Positions 13,476 through 21,968 of a DNA stretch of 64,000 nt are shown here, in pieces. The stretch is from contig JAQGMJ010000049.1 in assembly GCA_028292405.1 (NCBI GenBank), positions 257,353 through 321,352 on the forward strand, given 5' to 3'. The notes under the pieces were generated by a model, which was not told where the DNA came from, did not search any database, and worked only from the letters and a program-made list of their open reading frames with translations. The position numbers and the translations under genes are program-made. This DNA comes from Betaproteobacteria bacterium. Its GTDB lineage: Bacteria > Pseudomonadota > Gammaproteobacteria > Burkholderiales > JAEUOS01. Positions within the stretch are counted from its first letter, which is position 1, and every line of letters begins with the position of its first letter.

Positions 13476-15383
13476 TTACGCTCTGCGCGCCACTTCATCG
13501 CTAAGACGCTCGATCAAGGTGGTGAGGGGCATGGAACCTAAGTCCACATTACCCCGGGCCCGGACGGCCACCGTGCCTGCTGCCACCTCCTTGTCGCCTA
13601 CGACAATTTGGTAAGGCACCTTCTGCAGACTATGTTCGCGTATTTTAAACGAAATCTTGTCCGGGCGCAAATCCGAATCCACCCTAAATCCCTGTTTTTT
13701 TAGGGATTGTTGTACCTCGGCAGCATAATCAGCCTGATGCTCCGTGATTGGCATCACCACCGCATGCACCGGCGCCAGCCACAAAGGCAGCGCCCCCGCG
13801 TGGTTTTCCAGCAAAATCCCGATAAACCGCTCCAGCGATCCCACAATCGCCCGGTGCAGCATCACCGGCGTCTTGCGCGTGTTATCCGCCGCCACATACT
13901 CAGCGCCCAGCCGCTCCGGCATATTCGGGTCCACCTGCATGGTCCCGCACTGCCACACCCGCCCCAGCGCATCCTTCAGCGAATATTCGATCTTCGGCCC
14001 GTAAAAAGCGCCTTCTCCCTTCAACTCCTGCCATTCCACGCCGGAAGCATTCAGCGCATCCGCCAGCGCCTTCTCCGCCTTGTCCCAGCTCTCCTCCGAC
14101 CCGATGCGGTTCACCGGCCGCGTCGAAAGCTTGTAAATCACCTCCGTAAAGCCGAAATCCGTATACACCTTCTGCAGCAGCCGCGTAAACGCCAGGCACT
14201 CCTTCTGTATATCGTCCTCGGTACAGAAAATATGCCCATCGTCCTGCGTAAACCCGCGCACCCGCATGATCCCGTGCAGCGAACCCGACGACTCATTCCG
14301 GTGGCAAGACCCAAACTCGCCATAACGCAGCGGCAAATCCCGGTACGAACGCAGCCCCGCGTTGAACACCTGAATATGCCCCGGGCAATTCATCGGCTTC
14401 ACCGCATAGTCACGGTTCTCCGAAGACGTCGTGAACATATTCTCCTTGTAGTTCTCCCAGTGGCCGGAACGCTCCCACAAATGCTTGTCCAGGATCATCG
14501 GGCACTTGATCTCCTGGTACCCATTCTCCCGGTACACCGTGCGCATGTACTGCTCCACCTGCTGCCACACCGTCCACCCCTTCGGGTGCCAGAAAACCAT
14601 CCCCGGCGCCTCCTCCTGCAGGTGAAACAGATCCAGCTGCTTGCCCAGCTTGCGGTGGTCGCGCTTCTCCGCCTCCTCCAGCATATGCAGGTACTGCTCC
14701 AGGTCCTCCTTCTTCGCCCACGCCGTACCGTAAATGCGCTGGAGCATCTCGTTCTTCGAATCCCCGCGCCAATAAGCCCCCGCCAGCTTCATCAGCTTGA
14801 AAAAGCGCAGCTTGCCGGTGGAGGGCACATGCGGCCCCCGGCACAGGTCAATGAAATTCCCCTCCCGGTAAAGCCCGATCTCCTGATCCGCCGGAATCGA
14901 AGAAATAATCTCCGCCTTGTACTTCTCGCCGATCCCGTTAAAAAACGCCACCGCCTCATCGCGCCCCATCACCTCGCGCGTCACCTTCTCATCCTTCTTC
15001 GCCAGCTCCCCCATCTTCTTCTCGATCGCCGCCAAATCCTCCGGCGTAAACGGCCGCTTATACGAAAAATCGTAAAAAAACCCGTTCTCGATCACCGGCC
15101 CAATCGTCACCTGCGCATCCGGAAACAACTCCTTCACCGCATACGCCAACAGGTGCGCCGTCGAGTGCCGGATCATATCCAGCCCCTCCGCATCCTTATC
15201 CGTAATGATCGCAAGCGTTGCGTCATGGTCGATAGCGAAAGACGTATCCACCATCTTCCCATCCACCTTCCCCCCCAGCGCCGCCTTCGCCAACCCCGGC
15301 CCGATAGACGCAGCCACCTCCGCCACCGTCACCGGCTGCTCAAACGAACGCTTGGAACCATCAGGCAACTGCACCGAAACCAT
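13476..15383 (-). CDS. thrS: Threonine--tRNA ligase
   Basis: '[14 protein letters not shown]' TGS N-terminus, editing domain 'HSTAHLLA', class II motifs ('FRLSGEF'-like '[12 protein letters not shown]', '[10 protein letters not shown]', 'GTMQVD'), anticodon-binding C-terminus. Start at the internal ATG 15383. Confidence 0.93.
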
Positions 15384-15396
15384 AATTTTCTCTCTC

Positions 15397-15433
15397 AAAA
15401 AGCAAAAAGGCGCGGGACTCGAAGCCCCACGCC
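15397..15433 (-). promoter_or_regulatory. Terminator-like hairpin in the thrS 5' leader (attenuator candidate)
   Basis: Minus-strand GGCGUGGGG-cuucgag-UCCCGCGCC (9 bp including 2 G-U pairs) followed by UUUUUGCUUUUU. The U-run ends 13 nt before the thrS ATG. Confidence 0.5.
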
Positions 15434-15835
15434 TTTGACCAAATACCAACCTTGAGGCGAACGCGGGCCTTAGCTAAAAACTCCCTGCGTCCGGCTAGTT
15501 CGCGGTGTCATAACGCTCACCTTTCAATGGGTATCGGCTGATGCGGTTAAACGGATGTTGCGGATCCCAAAGAAATACAGCACTGGATCAACATATTAAC
15601 AAGAACGCGGGCGGGGCGCCAGAGCGACAGGACGATGGCATAGAACGGGGGCATATATGCATAAGCAACACTTTAGTCTTATTGTTTTTCAAGGCACATC
15701 AGCGCAAAGTAAGGAGTTGGAAAAAATCGATTTGCAACGAAGTCGCTATCGTTCTTCATGCGACCGGGCCATGCAGCTTGATAACTAGATACGTTCCAAC
15801 AAGATAGCTATTGTTTTAGCTAAAAGGGGAGAGTT

Positions 15836-16687
15836 ATGGAAAAAGAAAAATTTTGGAATTTCACCTTGTGGGATCTAGTAAAAGCAATCTCGACCCTCGT
15901 TGTCGTAGGTGTGGCGTCATACAAATTATTCGCAATGCCGGCTTCTCTTAATATGGATTTTCCGACCCTCCTATCGCTCTTGTTAGCCTTGTTTTCCGTA
16001 GCGCTGTCCGCACTTTTTTACTTCAAGGCGACAGACACAAGCAATGCTTTTTACGACAATACCTACAAATTTACAAAGGATATTGCAGAGTTATTGGTAA
16101 AGATTGAAAGCGGTTTCGGCGAGCGATTGAGGCACCTTGATGAAGGATATTCATCGATGCGAAACTATTTTCAGAATGTTCCCCCAAAACAAGCCGATGA
16201 CGTAGAGAGAACCAAAAAGAAGTTAGAGAATGAAGAGCAGGAAGTTGAAAAGGTTTTAATCGAGCGAAACGCAATAATCCAACAACTTGTTGAAAAATCC
16301 CAGCTACAGCAAGAGGAGAAAAGCCGCGTTCTTGATCAGTTAAGGGCCAAAGAAGAAGAACTAGCTAAGCTGCAAAATGAGGTAAATCGGCTTACTAGGC
16401 GGGTTGTTGTTGAAAAAATGAATAAGAAATCTGGGGCTGAAAGATTTGGTCTTCTACCTTCGTCGCTTGCCGACTATACGGCTGAAAAAGTTGTTCAGAA
16501 GATGGGAGGTCGAGAGGTCGCGGACTTATCCCTGGCTGAGCTTCGACACAGATTCACAAGCCTGATTAATGAACTACCGCGAGGCTATCTTCGAGATCTA
16601 GAGAGCCACGACCTATTTGACGACGGGTTAACGCCAGCCGGCGTTCGATTTGTCAGAGACCTAGCGGCAGGCCGCGGCACTCCGTAG
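15836..16687 (+). CDS. Hypothetical membrane-anchored coiled-coil protein (low-GC island)
   Basis: ATG follows AAAGGGGAGAG. Two N-terminal hydrophobic helices ('AISTLVVVGVASYKLFAM', 'LLSLLLALFSVALSALFYF'). Central E/K/Q-rich heptad-like region. AT-rich codon usage unlike the flanks. Confidence 0.6.
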   Translation: MEKEKFWNFTLWDLVKAISTLVVVGVASYKLFAMPASLNMDFPTLLSLLLALFSVALSALFYFKATDTSNAFYDNTYKFTKDIAELLVKIESGFGERLRHLDEGYSSMRNYFQNVPPKQADDVERTKKKLENEEQEVEKVLIERNAIIQQLVEKSQLQQEEKSRVLDQLRAKEEELAKLQNEVNRLTRRVVVEKMNKKSGAERFGLLPSSLADYTAEKVVQKMGGREVADLSLAELRHRFTSLINELPRGYLRDLESHDLFDDGLTPAGVRFVRDLAAGRGTP

Positions 16688-16711
16688 AGTCGCGCTGCTA
16701 GTTCTAGAAGT

Positions 16712-16725
16712 AAATAAAAGGTTCC
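16712..16725. repeat. Left copy of the 14-bp direct repeat AAATAAAAGGTTCC flanking the retron cassette
   Basis: Identical 14-mer at 18878..18891, with further imperfect similarity downstream (ACTAATCGT / ACTAATTCGT). Confidence 0.6.
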
Positions 16726-16775
16726 TATTACGCTTAGCTCAGGGACTAATCGTTGTTCAGTTAAGCGGATGTCGG

Positions 16776-17729
16776 CTAAATTGTTGGCGCGCCATTGTTG
16801 GTCGGTGGTGATCGCAAAAGAGCAGTCACTTGATTCGAGTCCAGGCGGCGGTAGACCAGATCTAAGACCGTCGGATCCACCGATCTAGCAAACGAAAGCA
16901 ATCCCTTCAGGCGTTCGACTTCTTGGGCAGACAATTTCCCTCTTGCAAAATGGTCAATCATGGCTCGTAATTGACGACGTCGATCGTGCCCAATCGAGAC
17001 CCTACCTTCGTTCGCCAGCGTTAAGCCAGTGAGTGTTCGATTAAATTTCTTCGAGACATTTACCGTTTTTGCGCTATTAAATTCGAGCCTTGGGTAGGCC
17101 ACGCTCTGGCAAAGCAAACGAATGTCTGAATGCAAGTTGTTCAGAGCATTGGGAATACTCGAAGAAAATGCTAGGTCATCCGCGTAGCGCGTATAGAGCG
17201 CTCCACGCTCTCTACATATTTCGGTAGCGCCCAAGTCGAAATCGAACATCAGCGAGTTTGATACTGCTGGAGAGCTAGGAGCCCCAATCGATAACCGGTA
17301 ATCGTCATCTTTTCTATCGCGTTTGAAAAGTATCTGCCTCAATATCCATAAATCATGTTCTGTGTATTGAGGCAAATATTTTTCTGCATGAGCGTTGAGG
17401 TCTGAGAATTTCAGCGATGGGAAAAAGTCTTTGAAATCCAGCTTAAGAAGATATTTATTGGCCGCATGAGGACGCGCATGACGCACGATTGATGCGCCTC
17501 GCCGATACGCTGTAGCCGCATCATGCAGAGGCCAGTCCACGACTGCAGTTGATACAGCCCAACGTTGCAGCATTTTCACTTCGCTTGTGGGCTGAGATAT
17601 AACGCGAGTACCACCCCTTCTCTTGGCAATTTCGTGAGTCTTATAGCGAGTCGGGGCTGTCAATAGCAATAGCTGTAACTCACCGGAACTAAAGGGCAAG
17701 TCTTGTAGCATTCTGAGAAATAAGCTCAT
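16776..17729 (-). CDS. Retron-type reverse transcriptase
   Basis: RT motifs 'LLKLDFKDFFPS', 'SIGAPSSPAVSN', catalytic 'YADDLAFS', retron-like 'RTLTGLTL' (VTG-type motif). About 317 aa with no maturase or endonuclease domain. The ATG lies 2 nt after the upstream effector stop. Confidence 0.85.
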   Translation of the reverse strand: MSLFLRMLQDLPFSSGELQLLLLTAPTRYKTHEIAKRRGGTRVISQPTSEVKMLQRWAVSTAVVDWPLHDAATAYRRGASIVRHARPHAANKYLLKLDFKDFFPSLKFSDLNAHAEKYLPQYTEHDLWILRQILFKRDRKDDDYRLSIGAPSSPAVSNSLMFDFDLGATEICRERGALYTRYADDLAFSSSIPNALNNLHSDIRLLCQSVAYPRLEFNSAKTVNVSKKFNRTLTGLTLANEGRVSIGHDRRRQLRAMIDHFARGKLSAQEVERLKGLLSFARSVDPTVLDLVYRRLDSNQVTALLRSPPTNNGAPTI

Positions 17730-17731
17730 GG

Positions 17732-18667
17732 CTATGCCCTAATAGCCCCGAACTTTGCCAACTGATACGCGTCGTATCGCTGTTTCTCACTTACAACGAG
17801 ATCGAAGGTGGTGCCCTTAAAGCGAAGGCGATCAAAAGGGTCATGGCCAGCCAACGCTGTGTGATCAACATACGGTTCGGCTAATCTAGAGACGTAATAT
17901 TTCGCTGGACCTCGCCTCTGTTCTTTCAGCAACTGAAACAGTAACAGTTGATTCAGTATTTGCTTTAAGCGCTCCTCAGTAAGCCTGACACCATAGTGGG
18001 CGAGTAAAAGTATCAGTTCAGCTTTAGTTATGACATTAAATAGATCCACCAAATCCGCGACTAAAAGTAGCTGATCGCGCGGCAGCTTGGGATCAAAGTG
18101 TTCTTTTTTTGGGGCCGAATCAACACGTGCTTCAAGAGCGCCAATTACCATCTCGACGTCCGGCGCAAAGTCCTCGACTTTCGGTCCGTGCACCGTGCAA
18201 ACGGACTCATCGGCGATTTGTTCCAGCCGACGAAGAGGACCTAACGAAATGTAAGAGATTTTTGGGTGATAGTTGTGCGCGACTATCGCCACGGTCTTAA
18301 AACGGAGCACGTCGTCAGCCGCGAACATCCCGAGTTCTGCGAGCGCACCAGATGTCTCGCAGAAAATCATCACAGCGCGTGAGAGATACCCGACGTCTCT
18401 CTCGAATTCAAGCAAGTCGGGATAACCTTCGAATCTATTCCATTCCCCGTAGTGTTCTGGGAAACGAACCCAGTCCTTAAATCGATGATTTTTTTCGATT
18501 AACGTTTCAAGGAACAGATTTCTCTGAGATATATGTTTCTTCTCAGGAGCGATACTGAGTGGGCCGCCAAACACGAGAATGAATGGCGGCCCCGAGATTA
18601 TTTTCGCAGTAGCAGGGTCGACGCTTGCAATGAATTGTTGTATTGCGTCACGAAGCACGGCACTCAA
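17732..18667 (-). CDS. Putative retron effector, nucleoside 2-deoxyribosyltransferase-like (RcaT/St85-effector-like) with a helical C-terminal domain
   Basis: 'PPFILVFGGP' (beta1-GG) and 'IFCETSGALAELGMFA' resemble NDT-fold motifs. Sits between the ncRNA and the RT, as in Retron-Sen2/St85. Start uncertain (TTG 18667 inside a2, or GTG 18658). Confidence 0.7.
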   Translation of the reverse strand: MSAVLRDAIQQFIASVDPATAKIISGPPFILVFGGPLSIAPEKKHISQRNLFLETLIEKNHRFKDWVRFPEHYGEWNRFEGYPDLLEFERDVGYLSRAVMIFCETSGALAELGMFAADDVLRFKTVAIVAHNYHPKISYISLGPLRRLEQIADESVCTVHGPKVEDFAPDVEMVIGALEARVDSAPKKEHFDPKLPRDQLLLVADLVDLFNVITKAELILLLAHYGVRLTEERLKQILNQLLLFQLLKEQRRGPAKYYVSRLAEPYVDHTALAGHDPFDRLRFKGTTFDLVVSEKQRYDAYQLAKFGAIRA

Positions 18668-18834
18668 TTACCCTTGAATTAGGCACGCAATCGGCCAAAG
18701 ACAATTTCGTGGAGCCTCAGCGGAGCGAAATTGGCTTTGGCCGATTGCGTGCCGTTGATGCAGTCCACCTAAATTCAGTCCGGCGAATCACCAGACAATT
18801 GATAGCCAAAAACGCTACCGAAACGCGTAATTGA
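18663..18834 (-). ncRNA. Retron msr/msd non-coding RNA (predicted)
   Basis: a1 CUCAAUUAC (18834..18826) pairs with a2 GUAAUUGAG (18671..18663). An unpaired G follows a1. Near-perfect 28-bp hairpin (arms 18682..18709 and 18726..18753, 1 mismatch, 16-nt loop). Located right behind a sigma70-like promoter. Confidence 0.65.
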
Positions 18835-18842
18835 GGCGAGTG

Positions 18843-18871
18843 ATTATGAATGCGTTCACATGAGTCGTCAA
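18843..18871 (-). promoter_or_regulatory. Sigma70-like promoter of the retron operon
   Basis: Minus strand TTGACG (18871..18866), 17-nt spacer, CATAAT (18848..18843). The predicted start falls about 7 nt downstream, just before a1. Confidence 0.6.
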
Positions 18872-18877
18872 ATTATC

Positions 18878-18891
18878 AAATAAAAGGTTCC
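18878..18891. repeat. Right copy of the 14-bp direct repeat AAATAAAAGGTTCC
   Basis: Identical to 16712..16725. Lies immediately upstream of the retron promoter -35. Confidence 0.6.
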
Positions 18892-19023
18892 AATCTCGAA
18901 CTAATTCGTGCCTCAAATCAGATCCGTGCTAGTGATAAAGGCTGCACAGCGCCGGCGGAGGCGGAAATGCGCGAGAATCAGGCAAAGCGCGCGCAGCGGT
19001 CCAGCCGTGCGCAGGAGACAATC

Positions 19024-19896
19024 ATGACCGTGGTTTTCAGCCCGCTACACCCCACCTTCGCCGCCGTAGTCGCCCCCATCGACCTGCGCCAGGCCCACGA
19101 CCCCGCCATCCTCGAATCCCTGCAACGCGGCATGGCGCAATACGGCGTGCTGGTGTTCCGCGACCAGCGCTTTACGAATGAGGAGCAGATGGCGTTCGCG
19201 CAGCGCTTCGATGGGGAGTTGCATGCGCGCACTTCCACTGCGGTGCTGGTGAAAAACCGGCATGGCAACGAGGCGTTGTCGGATGTGTCGAACGTCGGGG
19301 CCGATGGGCAGATATTGCCGGGGGAGGATAGGCGGCGCATCGGGGCGCTGGCTAACCGGCTGTGGCATACGGATGCTTCCTTTGTCACGCCGCCCGGCCG
19401 TTTTTCGATGTTGTCGGCGCGGGTGGTGCCGGAGGTAGCGGCCGATACGGAGTTTTGCGATACGCGCGCGGCGTATGCGGCGCTGGATGAGGCCACGCGC
19501 GCGACGCTGGCGCCGCTGCGGGTGCATCACTCCATCGCTTATTCGCGCGAGGTGCTGGGCTTTGTGTTCTCGGCGGAGGAGCGCGAGAAGTTGAAGGGCG
19601 CGGAGCAGCCGCTGATCCGCCGCATCGCGCGCGACCCGCGGCCGGCGCTGTACCTGGCTTCGCATGCGCAGGCCGTCGTCGGCATGCCGCTGGCCGAAGG
19701 CCGCCTGCTGCTGCGCGATTTGATGGAGCACGCCACCCAGCCGCAATTCGTCTACCGGCACCAGTGGCAGGCGCACGATTTCGTCATCTGGGACAACCGT
19801 ACCACCATGCACCGCGCCACCCCGTTTGATGACCGCAAATACCGGCGCGAGTTGGTGCGCACGACTACGCTGGATATCGAACAGGCGCTGCCGTAA
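19024..19896 (+). CDS. TfdA/TauD-family Fe(II)/2-oxoglutarate-dependent dioxygenase
   Basis: 'VLVFRDQ', His-X-Asp 'LWHTDASF', 'FVIWDNRTTMHRA' and the overall TfdA-like sequence. ATG 19024 chosen at the point where GC and codon usage return to host type. Confidence 0.85.
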   Translation: MTVVFSPLHPTFAAVVAPIDLRQAHDPAILESLQRGMAQYGVLVFRDQRFTNEEQMAFAQRFDGELHARTSTAVLVKNRHGNEALSDVSNVGADGQILPGEDRRRIGALANRLWHTDASFVTPPGRFSMLSARVVPEVAADTEFCDTRAAYAALDEATRATLAPLRVHHSIAYSREVLGFVFSAEEREKLKGAEQPLIRRIARDPRPALYLASHAQAVVGMPLAEGRLLLRDLMEHATQPQFVYRHQWQAHDFVIWDNRTTMHRATPFDDRKYRRELVRTTTLDIEQALP

Positions 19897-20494: not shown

Positions 20495-20602
20495 CGCAAG
20501 GCCGGTTTTGCCGTGAGTGGAACACTAGTTGCTTGGTCAGCGTGACGTCGCCGGGACGTGCTGCCGCCTCCGTATAATCTCCCCACTATCCGAGCCTCCC
20601 TC

Positions 20603-21775
20603 ATGACCCTCTTTTCCCTGCGCAGGCTTGCCGCCGGCGGCGCGCTGGCGCTGGCGGCGCTCATCAGTGCCCCGGTCGCGCAAGCGCAGGCCCTGCACCC
20701 GCTCTCGCCGGCGTTTCTCGCGACGCTGAATAACGTCGACACCTCTTCCGATGAGATCGGCGCTTCGGTCATGGCCATCAAGAATGCGGACCTGACGTAT
20801 TCGATGTTCTCCCGCGGCCGCGTCGAGAAGGCCATTGCGAACATGGAGCAGCAGTTGCCGGCGCTGAAGGCGCAAACGGCCAGCCTGCGGCGCGAAGAGT
20901 CCTTGCGGGTGCTGCTGGCCATGCGCACGGCGTTTTCAGATGCGCAGCGCAATATCGGGTCGATCTCCGACATCCTGCACGGCGTCACCGTGCGCACCCC
21001 GGCGCAGGCGGACGCGCTCGACAAGCTGCTGGCGCGGCTCGATAGTGCCACCGCGCAACTGGACGCGGCGCTCAAGCGCTTCGACAGCGGGGCGGTGGCG
21101 CTGACGGCGCGGGCTTCGTCCTCATCTGCCCCTGCCCCTGGCCCTGCCTCCGCCCCCGCCGCCGGGCAAGCGCAGGTGCCGATGTCTCCCGCCTCCGTCC
21201 AGGCACAGGCAGGCGCCTCATCCGCGCAAGCGCAGGCCGCAGCTACCCCCGGGCAGGCAGCGGCATCGTCCGCATCCGGCGCCGCGCAAGCGCCGGGCGC
21301 ATTTGCCTCCGCCCCCGCCTCCACGCAGGCGGCGCTGCGCCCGCTGCCGCCGAACCTTCTCGCCACGCTGAAAGACGTAGACACCTCTTCCGACGAAATG
21401 GCGGCTTCGGTGACGGCGGTGAAGAATGCGGACCTGACGTATTCGCTGTTCTCCCGCGGCCGCGTCGAGAAGGTGATCGCGCGCATGGAGAAGCAGTTGC
21501 CGATGCTCAAGGCGCAGACGGCGGATCTGCGGCGCGATGAGTCGCTGGGCGTGCTGCTGTCGATGCGCACGGCCTTCTCGGAGGTGCAACGCGACGTCGG
21601 CTCGGTCTCCGAAATCCTGCACGGCGTCACCGTGCGCACCCCCGCGCAGGCCGACGAGCTGGACCGCCTGCTCACCCACCTGGACGCCGCCGCCGCCCAC
21701 CTGGACGCGGCGCTCAAACGCTTCGACACCGGCGCCCTGGCGATGATCGAGTTGCTGGACAAGCCCGCCCGCTAG
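20603..21775 (+). CDS. Secreted hypothetical protein with two tandem 138-aa domain copies
   Basis: Signal peptide 'MTLFSLRRLAAGGALALAALISAPVAQAQ'. Repeats at 20690..21103 and 21332..21745 are separated by an A/S/P/Q low-complexity linker. Confidence 0.65.
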   Translation: MTLFSLRRLAAGGALALAALISAPVAQAQALHPLSPAFLATLNNVDTSSDEIGASVMAIKNADLTYSMFSRGRVEKAIANMEQQLPALKAQTASLRREESLRVLLAMRTAFSDAQRNIGSISDILHGVTVRTPAQADALDKLLARLDSATAQLDAALKRFDSGAVALTARASSSSAPAPGPASAPAAGQAQVPMSPASVQAQAGASSAQAQAAATPGQAAASSASGAAQAPGAFASAPASTQAALRPLPPNLLATLKDVDTSSDEMAASVTAVKNADLTYSLFSRGRVEKVIARMEKQLPMLKAQTADLRRDESLGVLLSMRTAFSEVQRDVGSVSEILHGVTVRTPAQADELDRLLTHLDAAAAHLDAALKRFDTGALAMIELLDKPAR

Positions 21776-21803: not shown

Positions 21804-21968
21804 GCTGCTTAGCAGGTCTCCTCCCTTTCAAGGGGAGGGACAGGGTGGGGATGGGGCTAAACCGCCCACGGCGATCACCGTTACGCTTACCACCGGCCAC
21901 GTTCACCCATCCCCCTCCGGGTTTGCGTAACCCTCTCCCCTTGAAAGGGGAGAGACCTGCCAAGCAGC
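21804..21968. repeat. 165-bp element with imperfect 37-bp terminal inverted repeats (MITE/REP-like)
   Basis: GCTGCTTAGCAGGTCTCCTCCCTTTCAAGGGGAGGGA (21804..21840) against the reverse complement of 21932..21968 (about 33/37 matches). Each arm holds its own CTCCCYTT..AAGGGGAG hairpin. Confidence 0.6.

Follow-up and report, generated by a model that had tools for sequence, protein, structure and literature searches.

A probable msr–msd RNA gene of an St85/Sen2-type retron in a Betaproteobacteria contig

Introduction

Retrons are anti-phage reverse-transcriptase systems. The order non-coding RNA (ncRNA), NDT-like effector and reverse transcriptase (RT) is that of retron-Sen2/St85, Eco9 and Vmi1, which belong to type II-A1 (PMC7736814, PMC11701397, bioRxiv 10.1101/2020.06.22.160168). 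We analyzed a 64,000-nt stretch of contig JAQGMJ010000049.1 from Betaproteobacteria bacterium (assembly GCA_028292405.1, positions 257,353–321,352), hereafter the window, which has these elements in the same order on its minus strand. Positions 18837 to 18663 of that strand are very probably the msr–msd ncRNA gene of a type II-A1 (St85/Sen2-family) retron. By the sequence criteria of that family the locus, which has itself not been described previously, is an ordinary St85/Sen2-type retron.

In St85, Vmi1 and Yf79 the branching G is found at RNA position 12, and relatives of this kind have a promoter 5–6 bp upstream of msr, two RNA stem-loops and an 85-nt DNA (PMC11701397, PMC3335539). For Sen2 and Eco9 only, a tripartite toxin–antitoxin system is known in which the complex of RT and multicopy single-stranded DNA (msDNA) is the antitoxin of the effector RcaT (bioRxiv 10.1101/2020.06.22.160168). 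Types I-A and II-A1 share their ncRNA structure, and an NAXXH motif and a VTG triplet are hallmarks of retron RTs (Mestre et al. 2020, PMC7736814). A link between msDNA synthesis and translation of the effector has been published only for the type VI retron Vpa2 (bioRxiv 10.1101/2025.10.22.683967). Its whole small effector open reading frame (ORF) lies inside an RNA closed by the arms a1 and a2, and its msDNA is absent until infection and then activates translation.

Organization of the locus and comparison with known retrons

Read along the minus strand, the operon consists of a promoter-like site, a1, a G, two msr hairpins, an msd hairpin, a2, an NDT-like effector gene and a retron RT gene (Table 1). 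The RT ATG lies 2 nt past the effector TAG and has its own AGGG Shine–Dalgarno sequence. The gene order is that of Sen2 (St85, Salmonella Typhimurium), Eco9 and Vmi1 (msrmsd-rcaT-rrtT), and both proteins score above the corresponding NCBIfam St85 cut-offs: the effector reached 178.8 bits with NF038232 (retron St85 family effector protein, curated cut-off 100) and the RT 312.1 bits with NF038233 (retron St85 family RNA-directed DNA polymerase, cut-off 235). PADLOC matched the effector nearly full length to NDT_II-A (4.5e-66, residues 7–298) and the RT full length to RT_II-A (9.6e-107), and Pfam RVT_1 also recognized the RT. The effector had no match in the local Pfam copy, although PF28093 is assigned to it and its relatives in the protein database. 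Near relatives of the effector in that database are few, and the closest is 42% identical. Effector identity is only ~28% compared to plasmid-borne St85-family effectors, RT identity is ~38%, and the hosts of the window's relatives are mostly Betaproteobacteria, unlike those of the Sen2/St85 group.

Two other retron types share parts of this locus. The nearest solved RT structures are those of Ec78 and Ec83 (E ~1e-55), the second-best PADLOC RT model is RT_I-A, and the ncRNA model described below also recognizes type I-A RNAs. However, type I-A retrons (Ec78/Eco7, Ec83/Eco4 and Vc95; RT-PtuA-PtuB) encode an ATPase and an HNH nuclease downstream of the RT, whereas here an NDT-like protein is encoded between the ncRNA and the RT. 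Retron-Eco1 (Ec86; type II-A3) has the same msr–msd logic and an NDT-like effector, the sole solved structural relative of the effector found here (E 3.6e-6). It differs in its more distant RT (E 1e-28), its order msr-msd-RT-effector and its different ncRNA type.

Architecture and folding of the RNA

Both a repeat finder and direct reading gave a perfect 9-nt inverted repeat in which, in forward-strand letters, 18663-18671 (CTCAATTAC) matches 18827-18835 (GTAATTGAG). An original prediction, made for this part of the window, had read these letters as the a1/a2 duplex of an msr/msd RNA. The perfect 9-nt complementarity stands, but a1 had been placed at 18826..18834, one base too low. Likewise, a G does directly follow a1, but at 18826, since the complement of 18825, the position originally given, is C. 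Other parts of the prediction were borne out as worded: a G precedes a2 at 18672 (and another at 18673), the repeat finder returned exactly the predicted msd arms with their 28 bp, single mismatch and 16-nt loop, and the roughly 70 nt estimated between a1 and the msd stem measure 73 nt (18826..18754), leaving a 72-nt stretch (18825..18754) between G18826 and the msd hairpin.

Upstream of a1, a promoter-like site resembles those of the relatives. Of 34 loci compared (see below), 26 have a −10-like hexamer, accompanied by a TTG-type −35, that stops 6 nt short of the 8-nt a1; in the window the distance is 8 nt. We infer from the sequence a transcript start at ~18837-18835, the 5′ edge of a1. An RNA that starts at 18837 would have G18826 as its position 12, as in the relatives. 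The two msr hairpins, the long mismatched msd hairpin and the promoter a few bp upstream are likewise features of Vmi1 (PMC11701397). By analogy with St85 and Vmi1 (PMC11701397), the single-stranded 3′ part of msr would be the zone in which reverse transcription terminates and the RNA–DNA hybrid forms; its 3′ end is kept as (A)TC(A/T)AC in the clade alignment.

The 191-nt RNA folded with a minimum free energy of −89.1 kcal/mol, compared to −54.7 ± 3.7 kcal/mol for shuffled sequences (z = −9.4), and none of 200 shuffles folded as well. In the partition-function model a2 was paired at 0.999 (unpaired 0.001) and G18826 was unpaired at 0.999. The predicted msDNA (18672-18760), folded as DNA, gave −37.3 kcal/mol (z = −10.3). 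The single-sequence fold contained an additional helix of ~18777-18772 with ~18680-18675, which was dropped as the consensus fold does not contain it. Separately, 18657-18668, the effector start region, is complementary at 11 of 12 positions to 18744-18755 at the base of the msd stem, a possible alternative pairing without a1; it was treated as chance because relatives do not conserve the sequence that follows a2.

Table 1 Features of the retron locus in the window
Feature	Position	Strand	Details
Promoter, sigma-70-like	18843..18871	-	TTGACG (18871-18866), 17 nt, CATAAT (18848-18843); 10/12 matches
a1 arm	18827..18835	-	RNA CUCAAUUAC, 8-nt core UCAAUUAC; DNA in transcript sense CTCAATTAC
Candidate branching G	18826	-	first base 3′ of a1; invariant alignment column G12
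msr stem-loop 1	18801..18819	-	GGUAGC / GCUAUC, 7-nt loop
msr stem-loop 2	18778..18796	-	GUCUGGUG-AUU-CGCCGGAC; family consensus GUCGGGCG-nUU-CGCCAGAC
Single-stranded 3′ part of msr	18754..18777	-	ends in conserved AUCAAC beside msd stem
msd template hairpin	18682..18753	-	arms 18753..18726 and 18709..18682, 28 bp, one mismatch 18701/18734, 16-nt loop
First-templated stretch between msd stem and a2	18672..18681	-	CUAAUUCAAG-G; holds conserved AAGG
a2 arm	18663..18671	-	RNA GUAAUUGAG, 8-nt core GUAAUUGA; DNA in transcript sense GTAATTGAG
Effector, NDT-like, RcaT-type, retron St85 family	17732..18658	-	PADLOC and NCBIfam
Retron RT	16776..17729	-	317 amino acids, YADD box (RYADDL)
Direct repeat, left copy	18878..18894		17 nt; just outside −35 box
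Direct repeat, right copy	16712..16728		17 nt; 50 nt past RT stop

Conservation and covariation in related loci

Scans with an alignment of effector relatives yielded 36 loci, nine from genomes (mostly of Betaproteobacteria) and 27 from metagenomes. The same RNA is carried by 33 related loci; within the window's clade, 29 distinct sequences besides the window have this architecture upstream of the effector gene. The clade layout is xTCAATTAC-G-CG, GGTAGC...GCTATC, GTCGGGCGnTTCGCCAGAC and ...GTGGA...ATCAAC, followed by GGCACGAAA, a variable stem, TTTCGTGCC and ...AAG-GTAATTGA. Across the 30 clade sequences including the window, a1, a2 and the G after a1 are invariant.

Folding with homologous loci had been proposed with the original prediction as a check. 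RNAalifold, run on a structure-blind MAFFT alignment of the clade, gave a consensus of 43 pairs, 22 of them with compensatory (both-sided) changes; these fall in msr hairpin 1 and the msd stem, both of which covary strongly. Pair counts over 34 loci were then taken from an alignment fitted to the structure model, and the sequences were also checked by eye. Both-sided changes occurred in all six pairs of msr hairpin 1 and at every pair of a 17-pair conserved core of the msd stem. As usual for retrons, the upper part of the msd stem was hypervariable among the loci. Msr hairpin 2 showed no covariation, with five pairs that never vary and two that change on one side only; its near-invariant consensus recurs unchanged (GTCGGGCGTTTCGCCAGAC) in an Escherichia coli St85-type locus (L037).

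The original prediction had staked itself on the a1/a2 pairing being conserved in homologs. The 8-bp core is present in 34/34 loci, with both-sided changes in four of its eight pairs and 98.9% of cells paired. These changes include three double changes in L033 and L034 (a1/a2 TTGAATAC/GTATTCAA) and two in L037 and L038 (CCTTTAC/GTAAAGG). Immediately 5′ of a2, (A/T)AGG is found in every one of the 34 loci.

A covariance model, R1, was built from the window's clade. In the window it has one full-length match, at 18837..18661 on the minus strand (136 bits), and it scored 65–67 bits with the divergent loci L033 and L034. R1 also recognized RNAs that precede annotated retron St85 family genes in E. 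coli NZ_CP128951 (L037; 50.5 bits, E ~1e-9) and Vibrio sp. HDW18 (L038; 41.6 bits, E ~1e-7), and others that precede Ec78-type (RT-PtuA-PtuB) retrons carried by Klebsiella and Vibrio plasmids (L039 and L040; 49.3 and 45.5 bits), in agreement with the ncRNA structure shared by types I-A and II-A1 (PMC7736814). With blastn, the RNA had no match in 5,426 E. coli genomes; DNA-level similarity stops short of the enterobacterial relatives, and a covariance model was therefore needed to reach them.

The RNA of the E. coli and Vibrio St85-type loci is thus homologous to that of the window and has the same 'AC-G-CG' context after a1, and in the E. coli locus msr stem-loop 2 is identical to the clade consensus. 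In contrast, their a1/a2 is CCUUUAC/GUAAAGG instead of UCAAUUAC/GUAAUUGA, their RTs have NAxxH/VTG instead of HAxxH/LTG, and they possess a terminator-like hairpin after a2 and a spacer of ~50 nt from a2 to the effector start, both missing from the window. By sequence, the clade is accordingly marked by its invariant a1/a2, by an a2 that abuts the effector start without a terminator and by the HAxxH/LTG RT.

The msr/msd reading of the original prediction is hence supported by the St85-family neighbors, the architecture in 33 related loci, covariation and model matches to annotated retrons. Sequence and comparison together show how the RNA is built, that it is conserved and that it is linked to genes of the St85 family. 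What is gained is a correctly delimited msr–msd gene and a 34-locus comparative structure model for a little-studied, mostly betaproteobacterial branch of St85/Sen2. Well-defined retron ncRNAs are usable as new scaffolds for DNA production and editing.

Points against the assignment and alternative readings of the RNA

Several observations weigh against the assignment. Perfect 9-nt inverted repeats with 100–250 nt between the arms are common in the window (150 seeds on 99 diagonals, ~2.3 per kb), so the a1/a2 repeat by itself is at chance level and, taken alone, is not significant; only two such pairs flank a hairpin of at least 14 bp, and the real support for an RNA gene is its conservation in the 33 other loci. 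A search of Rfam at E ≤10 found no retron family, only spurious microRNA hairpins that matched both strands of the palindromic stem, leaving no curated RNA model to confirm against. The a1/a2 covariation rests on four distant loci aligned by the structure-fitted model and on none within the clade, where the arms never vary and the data therefore neither support nor contradict the pairing. In the RT, residues ~85–89 read HARPH (HAxxH) and ~232–234 LTG instead of the hallmark NAxxH and VTG, with the xAxxH and xTG cores kept. The H in place of N and the L in place of V are fixed in all RTs of the window's clade, the RTs of L033 and L034 have NAEIH/ITG, and those of the E. coli and Vibrio St85-type loci have the canonical motifs. 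Finally, G18824 is invariant as well and might in principle serve as the branch point.

On the first two points one could suppose that the element is no retron RNA but a generic intergenic palindrome, such as a terminator, a REP/MITE-like element or a protein-binding site, that happens to lie beside retron genes. Besides the abundance of chance 9-nt repeats, the two strands of the stem score alike against the spurious microRNA model, and R1 also picks up the stem on its reverse strand. The full-length R1 match is nevertheless strand specific (136 compared to 29.9 bits) and the only one in the window, the msr sequence is conserved with annotated St85 and Ec78 retron loci, and no T run follows the stem. 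We regard a generic palindrome as extremely improbable.

A second possibility keeps the retron RNA but moves the branch to G18824 (motif ACGCG), or restricts the functional helix to the 8-bp core. Alignment columns G12 and G14 are both invariant, and the ninth a1/a2 pair (18835/18663) is confined to the window and one other locus (L032). Against a branch at the second G, canonical retrons branch at a G that is the first base after a1 to be unpaired, G18826 falls in the same R1 alignment column as the G of 'A-G-CG' in Ec78-type RNAs, and the position-12 count from 18837 falls on G18826 (PMC11701397, PMC3335539). These variants of the assignment appear quite improbable, and G18826 is the preferred candidate.

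Proposed route to msDNA

By sequence and comparison, a1 (18835-18827) and a2 (18671-18663) can close the transcript and leave G18826 unpaired at the foot of the helix. The steps of msDNA synthesis and of antitoxin action are inferred from the known biochemistry of the family. In the proposed route, the RT (16776-17729) would bind the msr hairpins and prime from the 2′-OH of G18826. It would then begin copying at 18672 and proceed across the msd hairpin, stopping near the conserved AUCAAC at ~18757-18760, after which RNase H would remove the template. The predicted product is an msDNA of ~85–90 nt with plus-strand sequence (5′-CCTTGAATTAGGCACG...) and a 28-bp stem containing one A/G mismatch. 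Homology with retron-Sen2 suggests that the complex of RT and msDNA would keep the RcaT-like effector from acting as long as no phage infection disturbs the complex.

Effector start codon and possible coupling to translation

The original prediction had the effector ORF open at TTG 18667 within a2. The overlap of this codon with a2 (18667-18665) is real, and it does open the mechanically called ORF, being the first possible start after an in-frame TAA inside a2; as the actual start of the effector, however, it probably gives way to GTG 18658. The two codons correspond to 311 and 308 amino acids, respectively. An identical database protein (P0001) has 308 amino acids, and homolog N termini align with V4 of the 311-residue reading, both of which fit GTG 18658. 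Homologs that unambiguously start with ATG have a conserved F at residue 8–10, in agreement with GTG (F9) and not with TTG (F12). Only 16 of the 34 loci have an in-frame TTG within a2, although for one locus (L005) it is the only canonical start. From the sequence, GTG 18658 is thus the more likely start and TTG 18667 a possible, less likely one.

With either codon, initiation would take place close to a2. Measured from the a2 end, the start codon falls at −4 to +12 nt in 32 of the 34 loci, and AAGG is conserved directly 5′ of a2, which places a2 inside the translation-initiation region; in the window, the ORF from GTG 18658 begins 4 nt past the 9-nt a2. This closing arm within the ribosome-binding region of the toxin gene is the single unusual trait of the RNA gene. 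The AAGG could double as a Shine–Dalgarno sequence. Because a2 sits between this AAGG and the effector start codon, folding and processing of the RNA may, as a speculative addition to its role in msDNA synthesis, also limit effector translation in cis. In its specific form, a2 of the clade would double as the spacer between the Shine–Dalgarno-like AAGG and the toxin start, so that a transcript that is folded, primed and cut by RNase H loses toxin synthesis, a cis-acting translational brake that replaces the post-a2 terminator of the relatives; the AAGG would at the same time supply the first templated bases of the msDNA. We consider this form unlikely.

The original prediction suggested that msd reverse transcription and RNase H processing could be coupled to effector translation, which is a plausible proposal. 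A stronger version holds that the structure is mainly a cis-regulatory 5′ leader that occludes the effector ribosome-binding region, with reverse transcription and RNase H gating toxin translation. The position of the start codons, the AAGG and the nearly complete pairing of a2 in the fold (~99.9%) fit such a leader. So does the difference from the enterobacterial and Vibrio relatives, in which a terminator-like hairpin and ~50 nt separate a2 from the start, whereas no terminator-like site was found at the RNA locus of the window. There is also precedent in type VI, where the effector is translationally repressed within its own ncRNA (bioRxiv 10.1101/2025.10.22.683967), and for Sen2 the legend of Extended Data Fig. 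2D states that internal msd deletions lower RcaT levels (bioRxiv 10.1101/2020.06.22.160168). On the other hand, the AGG before a2 is also conserved in L037 and L038, where it cannot be the effector Shine–Dalgarno sequence, and it may therefore reflect priming instead of translation. The likely start GTG 18658 was 64% unpaired in the partition-function model, and breaking a1 in silico left the initiation region unopened; since the accessibility of the GTG did not rise, coupling with a GTG start gains no support. Moreover, the antitoxin activity in Sen2 acts in trans at the protein level. A mainly cis-regulatory leader is accordingly rather doubtful, and the preferred reading remains an msr–msd gene.

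The comparison with the Vpa2 hybrid RNA points both ways. Both retron RNAs hold the ribosome-binding region of their effector within base-paired sequence. Unlike in Vpa2, the 308-residue effector ORF of the window runs outside the helix with only the a2 spacer region paired, and nothing indicates inducible msDNA. Type VI is defined by an effector ORF within the a1/a2 closure whose ribosome-binding site and start lie in stem-loops, an arrangement that the window does not have. Should the placement of a2 control toxin translation, RNA-level control of the effector, so far shown only for type VI, would be extended to a canonical retron type; otherwise, the locus is routine annotation.

In the two St85-type relatives, the terminator-like hairpin with its T run directly follows a2, at 1931-1954 in L037 and 1870-1894 in L038.

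Genomic setting

A low-GC islet at ~15500-19000 (42–52% GC, flanks 57–72%) holds the retron; its neighbors are thrS (13476-15449, minus strand) on one side and a gene for a TauD-family dioxygenase on the other. The cassette from promoter to RT is bracketed exactly by a 17-nt direct repeat, AAATAAAAGGTTCC[T/A]AT, with 16 of 17 positions identical, which suggests the scar of a discrete insertion of ~2.2 kb. Among ~30 related loci a comparable repeat flanking the retron was found only in L026 (20 nt), and it is therefore not a trait of the family.

The ORF of the TauD-family protein spans 18850-19896; its real start is probably ATG 19025, as the Pfam match begins at residue 64 of the ORF. Two plus-strand ORFs, 15541-15807 (88 amino acids) and 15836-16687 (283 amino acids), occupy the lowest-GC part of the islet and are convergent with the RT gene. 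Neither had a Pfam or NCBIfam match, and PADLOC gave only negligible ones (E above 1e-3); they could represent another defense or mobility gene. Farther away, ~30 nt past ORF 20558-21775, a 34-nt inverted repeat with 91% complementarity and 97 nt between its arms lies at 21804-21968. It contains the inner palindromes CTCTCCCCTT/AAGGGGAGAG and GGGGATGGG/CCCATCCCC; a structured RNA and a repetitive extragenic element are both possible readings.

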